From a candidate division FCPU426 bacterium (GTDB taxonomy: Bacteria; Oederibacteriota; PGYV01; Palsa-1178): DNA of 64,000 bases. The translations under genes were made by a program, and so were the position numbers. This document shows, in pieces, positions 24,031-38,387 of the stretch (positions are counted from its first letter, which is position 1; each line of letters begins with the position of its first letter). The notes beneath the pieces were generated by a model. That model searched no databases. It was not told where the DNA came from and was given only the letters and a program-made list of their open reading frames with translations. The stretch covers positions 320,001-384,000 of the forward strand of contig CAWIXE010000003.1 in assembly GCA_963840035.1 (NCBI GenBank), written 5' to 3'.

Positions 24031-24245
24031 GTAGAGACGCAGACTTGCCGCGTCTCAGACGCTGAAAGGCGAGACACAGCAAGCTGTGTCTCTACGAATA
24101 ACAAAAGCAAGGCGGTTTGTTGTCGTAGGGGCGAGTCGGTGACTCGCCCGCAGCGAGGGACGTATAAGGCGGCCTTAAGATCTAAGGCCGGGCGAGCCAC
24201 ACGTTTTCGCTGAAGCTTCAACGTGCAAGGCCGGCTCGCCCCTAC
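24031..24245. repeat. family-B REPIN (24031-24095, RAYT-flank type) followed by family-A REPIN with 31-nt insert (24125-24245)
   Basis: GTAGAGACGCAGACTTGCCGCGTCTC...GAGACACAGCAAGCTGTGTCTCTAC; then the family-A pair. Confidence 0.9.
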
Positions 24246-24287
24246 GAAAGCAAGTACGGTAAATAGAAATTAAAAACAGGAGCGCAA

Positions 24288-34075: not shown

Positions 34076-36271
34076 GTGGCATATTATAGGACAGCGGTAT
34101 TTTCAAATGTGAACACCCTGCTTACATATAAGGCTGAGGGCGCCGGCGCTGAAAAGATAGGCTGCCGCGCCGCGGTTAAGATAGGCAATAAAACGGCTAC
34201 AGCGCTGGTGCTGGAGCATCTCAAAGAGCCGGATATAGACCCGTCTAAAATAAAGGCTGTCATGGAATTCCTCGATGAAACGCCGGTCATGGACAAATAC
34301 CTGATGAAACTCGGGCTCTGGATGGCCGAATATTACCTGTGTCCGCCGGGTCTGGTGTTCCAGACCATGCTTGCACCGCTTTTTAAGGTGACTTCAAAAA
34401 GGATAGTCAGGCTTTTAAACGAGGAACTGGAATTAAAGGGAAGGCAGTGCGATGTCGCGGAGTATTTAAAGGATAAGGACGGGCTTGAAGCCACGGTTAA
34501 AGAGATGGAAAAAGCGCTGAGGTTCAAAGGCCTTTCAGCGGTATTAAACGCGATGCGGGAAAAAGGCATTATAGAAATAGAGGAAAAAGACAGTTCTAAG
34601 GGAATTAGGAAGAAGAAACTTAAACCCGGCACAGGCTCGGATTCCGAAGACCCTAATATAATTTTAACGCCCGAACAGCAGGCGGCTTTTGACGCTTTGG
34701 CAGGGAACATAGACACGGGAAAGTACAAGACTTATTTGTTATTCGGCGCGACAGGTTCGGGAAAGACCGAGGTGTATGTGCGCGCGTCGCTGCACGCCGT
34801 AAATGCCGGCAAGAAAGCCATAGTGCTGGTGCCTGAAATATTTTTAACCCCCCAGGTGACCGCGAGGTTTAAAGGCTGCTTTAAGGACAGGATCGCCATA
34901 TTCCACAGCGCGCTGAAACCTGCCGAGCGTTACCACGAGTGGGACAGGATGAAGAACGGGGAGATAGACGTGGTCGTGGGCACGCGCTCAGCCATATTCG
35001 CGCCGTTTGATAATTTGGGGCTTATAATTGTAGATGAGGAATTTGACTCCTCATATAAGCAGGACAGCGAGCCAAGGTATAACGCCAGGGACACGGCAGT
35101 GTACAGGGCGTCACTGTGTGGGGCCACGGTAGTCCTCGGCAGCGCCACGCCGTCGGCTGAATCATATTTAAACGCGGTTACGGGAAAATACGGGATGCTG
35201 AAACTGCCGCACAGGGTAATGTCCCGGCCAATGCCGGAAATTAAAGTTGTGGATTTAAAAATTGACGCCAATAAGAACAAGGACCTTTTTCTCTCGGATG
35301 ACCTGATAAGGCCCATGCAGGAAGCGGTGGAAGCGGGCGGGCAGGCAGTGCTTTTCATAAACCGCCGCGGGTTTTCAAGCTATAATTTCTGCATGGAATG
35401 CGGCCACATAGAAAAATGCGTCAACTGCGACATACCGCTGGTATACCATAAGTCAGGCAGCACCTTAAGGTGCCATTACTGCGGTTATGAGAAAAAGCCC
35501 GAGGTGTTCTGCCCCAAATGCTCCAAACCCATATCATATAAAGGCGCCGGCACGCAGAGGGTGGAGGATGTTATCACAAAATTCTTTCCCGATAAAAGGA
35601 TAGAGCGCGTGGACATAGACGCCATGAAGGAAAAAGCGGGTTACTTTGACCTCTATGACAGGATTAAAAGGAAAGAGATAGACATAATAATCGGCACGCA
35701 GATGATATCCAAGGGATTTGATTTTCCGGAGGTGACATTCGTGGGCGTGGTTTCCATAGACGCGGTGCTTAACATGCCCGACTTCAGGGCTGAGGAGCGC
35801 GTTTTTCAGCTGCTCATGCAGGTGGCAGGCAGGGCAGGCAGGGGCGATAAGCCCGGCAAGGTCGTGATACAGACATTTAACCCGCTAAACCCGGCCATTG
35901 AAAACGTGAGGAAATATGAGACGGAGAAGTTCTATGAAGAGATGCTGTCCATCCGCAAAGACATGGGTTACCCGCCCTATAGCAGGATAATTCAGGTCAT
36001 AATACAGGACGAATCCATGGAAAAGGCCTTTAAGGACGCGGATGACGCGGCCGCGGTGATATATGAAGTGATGAGGAAGAATAATCTGAAAAATGTGGAT
36101 GTTTTAGGGCCGGCAGAGGCGCCGCTGTTTAGGATAAGGAACAAGTACAGGATGAGTATAATAATAAAGAGCAAAGATATTAAAGCTTTGAATATGATAG
36201 GCAGGGAATTAAAGAAAGGGACAAAGGCGATGGATGTGACTGTCGTTGTTGATCCCGGTAACATACTGTAG
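34076..36271 (+). CDS. priA: primosomal protein N' (replication restart helicase)
   Basis: GATGSGKTEVY, LVPEI.LT.Q, VGTRSA.F.P, DEE, LGSATP, NRRGF, two Cys-rich Zn motifs, GTQM..KG.DFP, QVAGRAGR. Confidence 0.98.
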   Translation: MAYYRTAVFSNVNTLLTYKAEGAGAEKIGCRAAVKIGNKTATALVLEHLKEPDIDPSKIKAVMEFLDETPVMDKYLMKLGLWMAEYYLCPPGLVFQTMLAPLFKVTSKRIVRLLNEELELKGRQCDVAEYLKDKDGLEATVKEMEKALRFKGLSAVLNAMREKGIIEIEEKDSSKGIRKKKLKPGTGSDSEDPNIILTPEQQAAFDALAGNIDTGKYKTYLLFGATGSGKTEVYVRASLHAVNAGKKAIVLVPEIFLTPQVTARFKGCFKDRIAIFHSALKPAERYHEWDRMKNGEIDVVVGTRSAIFAPFDNLGLIIVDEEFDSSYKQDSEPRYNARDTAVYRASLCGATVVLGSATPSAESYLNAVTGKYGMLKLPHRVMSRPMPEIKVVDLKIDANKNKDLFLSDDLIRPMQEAVEAGGQAVLFINRRGFSSYNFCMECGHIEKCVNCDIPLVYHKSGSTLRCHYCGYEKKPEVFCPKCSKPISYKGAGTQRVEDVITKFFPDKRIERVDIDAMKEKAGYFDLYDRIKRKEIDIIIGTQMISKGFDFPEVTFVGVVSIDAVLNMPDFRAEERVFQLLMQVAGRAGRGDKPGKVVIQTFNPLNPAIENVRKYETEKFYEEMLSIRKDMGYPPYSRIIQVIIQDESMEKAFKDADDAAAVIYEVMRKNNLKNVDVLGPAEAPLFRIRNKYRMSIIIKSKDIKALNMIGRELKKGTKAMDVTVVVDPGNIL

Positions 36272-36281
36272 GACCTAATGC

Positions 36282-36585
36282 GAGACACAGCAAGCTGTGT
36301 CTCTACGAGGGACTAAACCTGAAGGCGTTAGTTCTTTGTAGAGACGCAGCTTGCCTGCGTCTCAGACGTAGGAATTCAAGGCAGGGCAAAGGCGAGACAC
36401 AGCAAGCTGTGTCTCTACGAAGTGCTGAACCGTTACTGTTCTTGATATTTGTAGAGACGCAGCTTGCTGCGTCTCAGACGCGGGCTTAAAACAGGGCAAA
36501 TGCGAGACACAGCAAGCTGTGTCTCTACGAAAGGCGATGCCGTTATTGTTGTTGGTTTTTGTAGAGACGCAGCTTGCTGCGTCTC
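36282..36585. repeat. left REP array of RAYT: 6 alternating family-B REPs
   Basis: Reverse REPs at 36282, 36394, 36504; forward REPs at 36338, 36451, 36561. Confidence 0.95.
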
Positions 36586-36613
36586 AGACGTTGAAAACCA
36601 TAAGGGGGGATGG

Positions 36614-37132
36614 ATGACGTTATTTCGAAATAAATACAGGATAGAGACAACAAGATTGAAGGACTTTGATTACTCTCAGGTTGCTGATTATTATGTGACG
36701 ATTTGCGTCGATGACAGGATAAAGGTTTTTGGTACAATTGAAAATGGCAAAATACAATTGAACAGCAGCGGCGAATTGGCCGCTAAAATATGGAAAAACC
36801 TGGAAACCGATTATAAATTTATCAAGCTTGAAGACTATGTGATAATGCCGGAACACATGCATGGCACAATAAGAATCGGCAAAAAAACGGGCATTACGTT
36901 ATCAAGAATCATTCAGGCTTATAAATCGAAAAGCACTATCGCAATTAATAAGTCAAACCCGAAAAATACAACATTTAAATGGCAAAAAGGTTTTTTTGAC
37001 AGGGTAATACGGGATGATAAAGAGTTTTACTTTGTAACGGAGTATATTAAAAATAACCCTATAATGACCGACCCCGCCAATTATTATAAAGAGTGGTGGG
37101 AATTGCAGCAAATGCGCGAAGACGAGGCGTAA
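36614..37132 (+). CDS. REP-associated tyrosine transposase (RAYT/TnpA-REP, Y1 HUH family)
   Basis: RL..FDYS....YYVTIC, VIMPEHMHG (HUH), KWQKGFFDRVIR, EYIKNNP (catalytic Tyr); RBS AGGGGG before the ATG at 36614; flanked by REPs. Confidence 0.93.
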   Translation: MTLFRNKYRIETTRLKDFDYSQVADYYVTICVDDRIKVFGTIENGKIQLNSSGELAAKIWKNLETDYKFIKLEDYVIMPEHMHGTIRIGKKTGITLSRIIQAYKSKSTIAINKSNPKNTTFKWQKGFFDRVIRDDKEFYFVTEYIKNNPIMTDPANYYKEWWELQQMREDEA

Positions 37133-37136
37133 AGGC

Positions 37137-37934
37137 GAGACACAGCAAGCTGTGTCTCTACGAAGGGCTAAACATGAAGGTATTAGTTCTTTGTAGAGAC
37201 GCAGACTTGCTGCGTCTCAGACGCCGGGCTTAAAACAGGGCAAAGGCGAGACACAGCAAGCTGTGTCTCTACGAAGGACTAAACCTGAAGGCGTTAGATC
37301 TTTGTAGAGACGCAGCTTGCTGCGTCTAAGACATTGGGCTTAAAACAGGACAAATGCGAGACACAGCAAGCTGTGTCTCTACGAAGGACTAAACCTGAAG
37401 GCATTAGTTCTTTGTAGAGACGCAGCTTGCTGCGTCTCAGACATTGGGCTTAAAACAGGGCAAAGGCGAGACACAGCAAGCTGTGTCTCTACGAAGGACT
37501 AAACCTGAAGGCGTTAGATCTTTGTAGAGACGCAGCTTGCTGCGTCTCGGACGTTGGGCTTAAAACAGGGCAAAGGCGAGACACAGCAAGCTGTGTCTCT
37601 ACGAAGGACTAAACCTGAAGGCGTTAGATCTTTGCAGAGACGCAGCTTGCCTGCGTCTCGGACGTTGGGCTTAAAACAGGGCAAAGGCGAGACACAGCAA
37701 ACTGTGTCTCTACGAAGGACTAAACCTGAAGGCGTTAGATCTTTGTAGAGACGCAGCTTGCTGCGTCTCAGACATTGGGCTTAAAACAGGAAAAATGCGA
37801 GACACAGCAAGCTGTGTCTCTACGAAGGACTAAACCTGAAGGCGTTAGATCTTTGTAGAGACGCAGCTTGCTGCGTCTCAGACGTTGGAACTTAAGGCAG
37901 GACAAATGCAAGACACAGCAAGCTGTGTCTCTAC
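37137..37934. repeat. right REP array: ~7.2 tandem copies of a 110-111-bp unit (15 family-B REPs)
   Basis: Reverse REPs at 37137, 37248, 37358, 37468, 37578, 37689, 37799, 37910; forward REPs at 37193, 37304, 37414, 37524, 37634, 37745, 37855; near-identical linkers. Confidence 0.97.
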
Positions 37935-37955
37935 GAAGACAATGCGGGTTTGTTG

Positions 37956-37964
37956 TGGTATAAT
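37956..37964 (+). promoter_or_regulatory. extended -10 promoter element for queF
   Basis: TG-g-TATAAT about 35 nt upstream of the ATG. Confidence 0.55.
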
Positions 37965-37997: not shown

Positions 37998-38387
37998 ATG
38001 GCTAAGGCTGAAGGCAGGACTTACGGGTTTGAAACGGAATCACGGATAGATACAAAGGCGCTGGAAACCATAAAATATACGGGCGAAAAGCAGCTTGTCG
38101 AGTATAAGACACGCGAATTCTCAGCTGTCTGCCCGTTTTCAGGGCTTCCTGATTACGCGGAAGTAATTATCAGGTATGTGCCTAAATCTGCAATAGTTGA
38201 ACTTAAATCCCTTAAATATTACTTTGTATCATTTCGAAACGTGGGTATTTACCAGGAAAAGGCTACGGACAGGATCTTCAAGGATATAAAAAAGCTTTTA
38301 AAACCCGGATACCTTTATGTTGAGACGGTTTATAATACCAGGGGCGGGATAGATTCGAAATGTATTATGGAAGCCGGCAAAAAATAG
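37998..38387 (+). CDS. queF: preQ0 reductase QueF (short type)
   Basis: EFSAVCPFSGLPD, YVP...VELKSLKYY, RN.GI..E, RGGI; RBS GAGG. Confidence 0.9.
   Translation: MAKAEGRTYGFETESRIDTKALETIKYTGEKQLVEYKTREFSAVCPFSGLPDYAEVIIRYVPKSAIVELKSLKYYFVSFRNVGIYQEKATDRIFKDIKKLLKPGYLYVETVYNTRGGIDSKCIMEAGKK

Follow-up and report, generated by a model that had tools for sequence, protein, structure and literature searches.

A RAYT gene within a REP array between priA and queF, and signs of occasional relocation among its relatives

In the 64-kb stretch of DNA analysed here (the window), the gap between the host genes priA and queF appears to hold a REPtron inside a BIME. The predicted nuclease would act on the surrounding family-B REP arms in trans, spread REPINs and amplify the array, while its own gene would relocate only rarely; we put the probability of this reading at roughly two in three. 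The layout, by which RAYTs were first defined and which has been described since 2010, and the idea that REPINs originate from such units are already in print (PMC2817692; PMC3116915). The modest news lies in the evidence for relocation among relatives, and this is the part worth following.

The RAYT gene and its REP array

The gap between priA (34076..36271, + strand; TIGR00595 602.9 bits, cut-off 230, with Pfam PriA domains) and queF (preQ1 synthase, 37998..38387, + strand; TIGR03139 114.4 bits, cut-off 86.9) measures 1726 nt and holds 21 family-B REP arms and one RAYT ORF. A preliminary description of this DNA had counted 21 alternating arms at 36282-37934, and the count proved exact. Reverse (R) and forward (F) arms alternate strictly in the order R,F,R,F,R,F, RAYT, R,F,...,R, with six arms upstream and 15 downstream of the gene. 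The upstream BIME (36282..36585) comprises R 36282, F 36338, R 36394, F 36451, R 36504 and F 36561; its first R-F linker matches the downstream linkers, and the next two are unique. The downstream BIME (37137..37934) consists of near-identical tandem units of ~110 nt with spacers of 29-30 nt, in agreement with the usual length of ~29 nt given earlier, and the earlier consensus fits with variants.

The last upstream arm (36561..36585, + strand), whose GTAG head faces outward, folds as DNA into a 9-bp stem with a 4-nt loop. It is followed by a slot of 551 nt (36586..37136, + strand) made up of the forward-arm tail, a G-rich RBS-like run, the RAYT ORF and the 4-nt rest of the reverse-arm tail. 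The gene had been placed between REP 36561 and REP 37137, its stop codon ending 4 nt short of the reverse REP, and we found the same: the TAA ends at 37132, AGGC (4 nt) follows, and the reverse arm (37137..37161, - strand) begins directly thereafter, so that the gene is bracketed by its cognate GTAG REPs, as had been proposed.

A sigma-70-like site (37936..37964, + strand; 10/12, consensus match only) begins 2 nt past the last REP and is likely the queF promoter. A search of 36200-36614 gave no such site ahead of the RAYT start, and the gene may be transcribed by read-through from priA. The priA stop codon lies inside a GTAG, and we considered it as the relic of a REP head. This was rejected because the related genome G006 has identical codons without a family-B array.

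The ORF (36614..37132, + strand, ATG to TAA) encodes a RAYT, or TnpA-REP-like Y1 HUH nuclease, of 172 aa that matches PF01797 with 40.1 bits (cut-off 23, E 4.6e-10). It carries the motifs EHMH (H81, H83), WQ (123-124) and YIKNNP (Y144), and H81, H83, Y144 and W123-Q124 are invariant in 11/11 aligned proteins. A structure model (pLDDT 86.5) found E. coli TnpA-REP (4er8) as its top Foldseek match (E 4.5e-7, TM 0.60-0.63, 18% identity), with IS200/IS605 transposases ranking close behind. Against the NCBIfam model for REP-associated tyrosine transposases (NF047646) the protein scored 63.9 bits (E 1.5e-17), under the cut-off of 80. It falls outside the IS200/IS605 transposases: it has YIKNNP instead of Y---Q, reaches 22.2 bits with the IS200 model NF033573 (cut-off 55) and exists in one copy. 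With WQ and YIxNNP but EHMH, its motifs make it most like TnpA-Y1 subclass 2.4, where we do not file it.

The host genome (G000; 98% complete, in the three contigs C1, C2 and C3) contains no second copy, the best other DNA match being 78% over 118 nt, and the GC content of the gene is 36.6% vs 48.7% for the window. There are five further RAYT paralogs (six in total of similar kind), each beside its own REP family. Three longer Y1 proteins (G000:C3:278123, C3:318423 and C2:583921; open frame ~320-335 aa) are likely of the subclass 2.1 type, and at the one of them inspected there were no GTAG REPs.

An array of this kind could also have a passive history, in which the gene came by horizontal transfer or host REP recombination and the array grew by slippage or unequal exchange without RAYT catalysis. 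The near-identical direct repeats downstream are good substrates for host recombination, and the patchy distribution of the gene (any clade match in 24/99 genomes) points the same way. However, the invariance of the catalytic residues in all 11 proteins and the retention of a separate REP family beside each paralog argue against it. Dispersed single REPINs with unrelated flanks, moreover, need a mobiliser, and we regard a purely passive origin as very unlikely.

For the preferred reading, a REPtron inside a BIME, other RAYT groups offer an analogy: TnpA-REP binds single-stranded DNA at the GTAG hairpin, makes its cut in short sites on the 5' or 3' side and rejoins the ends. Predicted nicking of single-stranded REP DNA by the window RAYT would, in the same manner, spread REPINs through the genome and amplify the local array, the 110-nt tandem units being made by cut-and-rejoin or rolling-circle copying. 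Occasionally, a REP-bounded piece with the RAYT gene would be copied or brought from another lineage and land in or beside a REP, and such a piece may have delivered the gene to the priA-queF gap. Long REPINs would then be two arms joined by unrelated sequence, and deletion within the RAYT slot may account for the short class alone.

Family-B arms and REPINs across the genome

A genome-wide map of family B, suggested with the preliminary description, yielded 43 forward-type and 37 reverse-type arms (~80), of which 21 lie in the RAYT array. Among them are 27 forward-reverse pairs, which include the RAYT slot with its 551 nt; the others have spacers of 103 nt (one pair), 26-31 nt (20) or 13-14 nt (five). 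The exact forward arm occurs in 2/99 phylum genomes (17 copies in the host genome, 1 in G001) and the exact reverse arm in 2/24 order genomes (34 copies in the host genome, 25 in G009). In G009, which belongs to another family, the 25 reverse arms (L136, L138, L142, L144) are paired with a variant arm across long spacers, and no cognate RAYT was found in this 94% complete genome.

The slot had been described as beginning agacgttg and ending aaaggc like an ordinary spacer. Both ends are present, as the slot starts AGACGTTG and finishes AAAGGC, and their similarity (8+6 nt) is far above chance. However, the last two A belong to the stop codon, and most of what looked like 'spacer ends' is conserved REP tail. 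The AGACG tail (one mismatch allowed) follows 23/24 paired and 5/18 unpaired forward arms, ten of these 18 coming from one hybrid tandem array. GCCTT-like tails (GCCTT/GCATT) accompany 22/24 paired and 9/12 unpaired reverse arms. Another REP family, too, has AGACG as its most frequent tail (7/36). Since the same tails follow arms that have no partner, the similarity of the slot ends is mostly a property of the arms.

The REPINs, including a lone copy at 24031, had been regarded as internal-deletion derivatives of the RAYT unit, and part of this claim may stand. The spacer of the short REPIN at C2:1002493, AGACGTTGAAAGGC, is exactly what results when the first 11 and final 6 nt of the RAYT slot are joined through their common AAA. 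The lone REPIN in the window (24031..24095, + strand) differs from it by one base; it is indeed a family-B pair, but with a spacer of 14 nt and not 29 nt. By inspection, AGACGTTGAAAGGC can be obtained too by removing 15 nt from a 29-nt spacer, and a long spacer at C1:235313 has its first 10 nt in common with it. The sequences would fit insertion as well as deletion, and only the five short REPINs among the 27 pairs could be deletion derivatives of the slot.

For the 26-31-nt class we rejected such an origin. Two of the 20 long-spacer interiors were compared directly with the RAYT slot and have at most 6 nt in common with it, which argues against deletion products, and a blastn search with the slot across the host genome matched no REPIN locus.

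Several other repeats were observed along the way. A different GTAG family (GTAGGGGCGAG...) adjoins the lone REPIN in the window (24128-24246), and its cognate RAYT is likely the one at G000:C2:545975. A second family-B array of 12 arms, with a linker similar to the RAYT-adjacent linker, lies at G000:C2:429800-430443; it begins and finishes mid-spacer, from which reverse-linker-forward units seem to move as well. At G000:C1:378760-379834, each hybrid tandem unit contains a family-B forward arm and an arm from the REP family of another RAYT. Finally, REP hairpin loops contain ~50 nt extra at G000:C1:235185-235734 and C1:366294-366602 and 22 nt at L114:5110-5135 (in the relative G002), apparently another small repeat that targets REP loops.

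Position of the gene in relatives and the G002 duplicate

The priA-queF region was compared, as had been proposed, in seven other genomes of the family, all with both genes and six of them informative (genes linked). The RAYT gene is not syntenic, so that the synteny named beforehand as a refuting outcome did not appear: it is present in 0/6 linked intervals. In G002, G004 and G006, priA and queF are adjacent (~300, 90 and 220 nt apart), two of these intervals having other REP types and one being without REPs. Unrelated genes separate the two in G003, G005 and G007, and in G001 they are on separate contigs. As these relatives belong to other genera (PriA identity 58-68%), the comparison fits gain here as well as loss elsewhere, and transposition as well as horizontal transfer.

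The nearest homolog is that of the metagenome locus L062 (62% aa identity), the sister of the window RAYT in the tree with a support of 0.95 (FastTree, 56 sequences, 144 columns, midpoint-rooted). L062 has both family-B arms, the forward-RAYT-reverse layout and a BIME as in the window, with different neighbours. The common arms are consistent with RAYT-REP co-evolution, for this one pair. An 18-nt direct repeat of the spacer start lies on either side of the L062 gene. The next gene downstream has 80-81% identity with four family genomes. In none of the eight family genomes (0/8) do the 0.4-1.5 kb upstream of this downstream gene contain a RAYT or a family-B arm. The upstream neighbour differs, which keeps this from being a clean empty site, and the comparison is again between genera.

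Further searches returned proteins P0003-P0005 as homologs at 57-62% and 43 matching loci in metagenome contigs, among which L062 alone was close. Genome contigs gave no close homolog (15 loci, all <=34%), and neither did mobile DNA (viral contigs, 1 locus at 26%; plasmids, 3 records at <=34%; phages, 1 record at 29%).

The sister clade (64-65% aa identity among members) occupies four sites: C1:356 kb in the host, one in G007, one common to G002 and G006, and a second one in G002. Given the priA-queF intervals without a RAYT (0/6), the result at the L062 site (0/8) and these four sites, RAYT genes of the clade likely change place now and then. In a survey of the phylum we found 48 matches in 24/99 genomes, plus L062. 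Near-duplicates (>=95%) within one genome account for 2/48 genome copies, which is within the published level of <5% and far from the 66% of IS200/IS110 (PMC5581495). Among the 48 complete ORFs the forward-RAYT-reverse layout occurs in six and the opposite reverse-RAYT-forward layout in at least five. A hairpin lies over the stop codon or starts <=10 nt from it in 21/48 copies. Hairpins within the gene, a trait of TnpA-Y1 subclass 2.4, were called in 32/49 related copies by a finder without shuffle control; there is no REP inside the window RAYT.

The two near-duplicates are the sister-clade copies of G002 (L113:5292-6112 and L114:5051-5981), which are 96.3% identical (20 differences in 546 nt) and lie on two long contigs with unrelated flanks. 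The identity runs from the upstream REPIN through the gene to ~8 nt beyond the last CTAC. The layout is REPIN-RAYT-REPIN (the flanking reverse arms were assigned by eye) and a forward arm supplies the TAG stop codon, unlike the layout in the window. The new copy is preceded by a permuted repeat of the gene's last ~45 nt together with a REPIN, as a circle or roll-over would leave it, whether RAYT or host recombination was the catalyst. In G006, of the same genus, the interval matching the new-copy site has 478 nt and no RAYT, although it is too diverged for alignment at the base level. Together, a recent, REP-bounded duplicate with a permuted 3' end looks more like active transposition than accident, and it is the best candidate for RAYT self-mobility.

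The preliminary description had gone further and seen in the window locus an autonomous unit. Such a unit would be a single-strand transposon: a circle would carry the REP-bounded RAYT to REP/BIME spacers, and short REPINs would be left behind by deletion. The G002 pair, with its identity limited to REPIN-gene-REPIN, its repeated 3' end and the G006 interval without RAYT, speaks for such movement, as do the direct repeats at L062, the sister clade's presence at four sites and the low GC content of the window gene. Other findings speak against autonomy of the window locus. Its RAYT is single, and one duplicate pair was found among 48 copies. The ends are not conserved, since forward-RAYT-reverse is the minority layout counted above and the recent duplicate is bounded otherwise. 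Both same-genus comparisons (n=2; G002/G006 and G060/G062) are syntenic, and the viral, plasmid and phage searches yielded no close relative. Moreover, G002 is a draft of ~90 contigs, so that its two copies could stem from two strains, and 18/20 of their differences cluster in the 3' half, which suggests recombination. The structure also fits homologous integration into an existing REPIN, as a passive history would have it. The available text of PMC3333891, PMC8266576 and bioRxiv 2021.07.10.451892 reports no RAYT self-transposition. Considering all this, autonomy of the unit is unlikely.

A related reading is also rather unlikely: the clade might not be fully domesticated and might still insert copies of its own gene, as REP-bounded circles, into REP/BIME spacers, shedding REPINs with 14-nt spacers as deletion products. 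Tentatively, this would account for the G002 duplicate, the four sister-clade sites and the two family-B RAYT sites. If true, this clade would bridge IS200 transposons and immobile RAYTs as a living intermediate. As it stands, the window locus is an ordinary REPtron from an uncultured lineage, useful as test material. With several relocations, a recent REP-bounded duplicate and a compact RAYT whose REP has two defined arms, the family allows a direct test of whether a RAYT can still move its own gene and whether REPINs arise from such units.

Some observations on related copies stand apart from this argument. The RAYT genes of G060 (L210) and G062 (L206) are 96% identical and better conserved than their flanks (87% for the region). 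We rejected a transfer between these two genomes, as the flanks are syntenic and 87% identical over 1947 nt. At L002, L003, L004, L007, L010, L021 and L022 the RAYT stop codon is the TAG of the next forward REP's GTAG head. At G000:C2:115620-116000, upstream of an RNase H-like gene (a label from reading of the sequence), a distant RAYT with other hairpins lies where G002 and G006 (L002, L003) hold the sister-clade RAYT, a case of RAYT replacement at one site.

Comparison with known systems

Published RAYTs provide the frame for these results. According to PMC2817692, every rayt gene stands between two inverted REPs, an arrangement 'reminiscent of typical transposable elements', and a third of the cases occur within BIMEs. 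The downstream REP often follows the stop codon directly, 3' ends of rayt genes are sometimes captured in BIMEs, and IS-like mobility was not found. PMC8266576 likewise gives no mobility evidence and locates the cleavage sites of groups 2 and 3, the two groups from which the biochemistry in these papers comes. No paper demonstrating self-transposition of a RAYT was found in the literature outside subscription journals. RAYTs at novel chromosomal sites are described for three Pseudomonas strains (PMC3686654). A model in PMC3116915 and bioRxiv 2021.07.10.451892 derives REPINs from REPs that once flanked an ancestral autonomous element. Duplicate rates in PMC5581495 are <5% for most RAYT groups vs ~66% for IS200/IS110.

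IS200/IS605 elements (IS608, ISDra2) have the same fold and hairpin ends with a tetranucleotide guide; the window RAYT differs in Y---NP instead of Y---Q, in its single copy and in hairpins dispersed genome-wide. TnpA-Y1 subclass 2.4, which corresponds to RAYT group 4 of PMC5581495, is defined by WQ, YIxNNP and the HuH motif NH[IFV]H in PMC6006769. The window RAYT resembles it in WQ, YIxNNP and the broad phylum scatter but has EHMH, whereas its distant relatives carry NH[FLVI]H.

The family-B pairs are like the REPINs or GTAG heterodimers of PMC3116915, PMC3337134 and PMC3733652: the paired arms are inverted, the spacers come in several lengths and their interiors are unrelated, the untagged end keeps a conserved tail, and some dimers are hybrids with other families. 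PMC3337134 describes spacers variable in length and sequence, and PMC3733652 heterodimers, conserved tails and variable REPtron layouts. Compared with published REPINs, there are fewer copies here (27 pairs) and a short class that matches the ends of the RAYT slot.

The closest likeness is to the REPtron, the REP-rayt-REP unit in a BIME (PMC2817692; PMC3333891; E. coli TnpA-REP, 4er8). The window locus combines a Y1_Tnp protein with HUH and one Tyr, whose best structural match is 4er8, two inverted palindromes headed by GT(A/G)G, REPs throughout the genome, a single copy and RAYT-REP co-evolution. As in the REPtron, inverted GTAG REPs of two arm types flank the gene, a REP lies right past the stop codon, and there are few units 5' and more 3'. 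We also count as a likeness that in E. coli the gene is known to have been precisely lost or replaced at its locus. In contrast to E. coli TnpA-REP, the window protein has an N-terminal KYRIETTRLK extension and is 18% identical to 4er8, the array is longer (21 arms) with 9-bp stems and 4-nt loops, and the site differs between genera, whereas E. coli, in a species-level comparison, has one locus.
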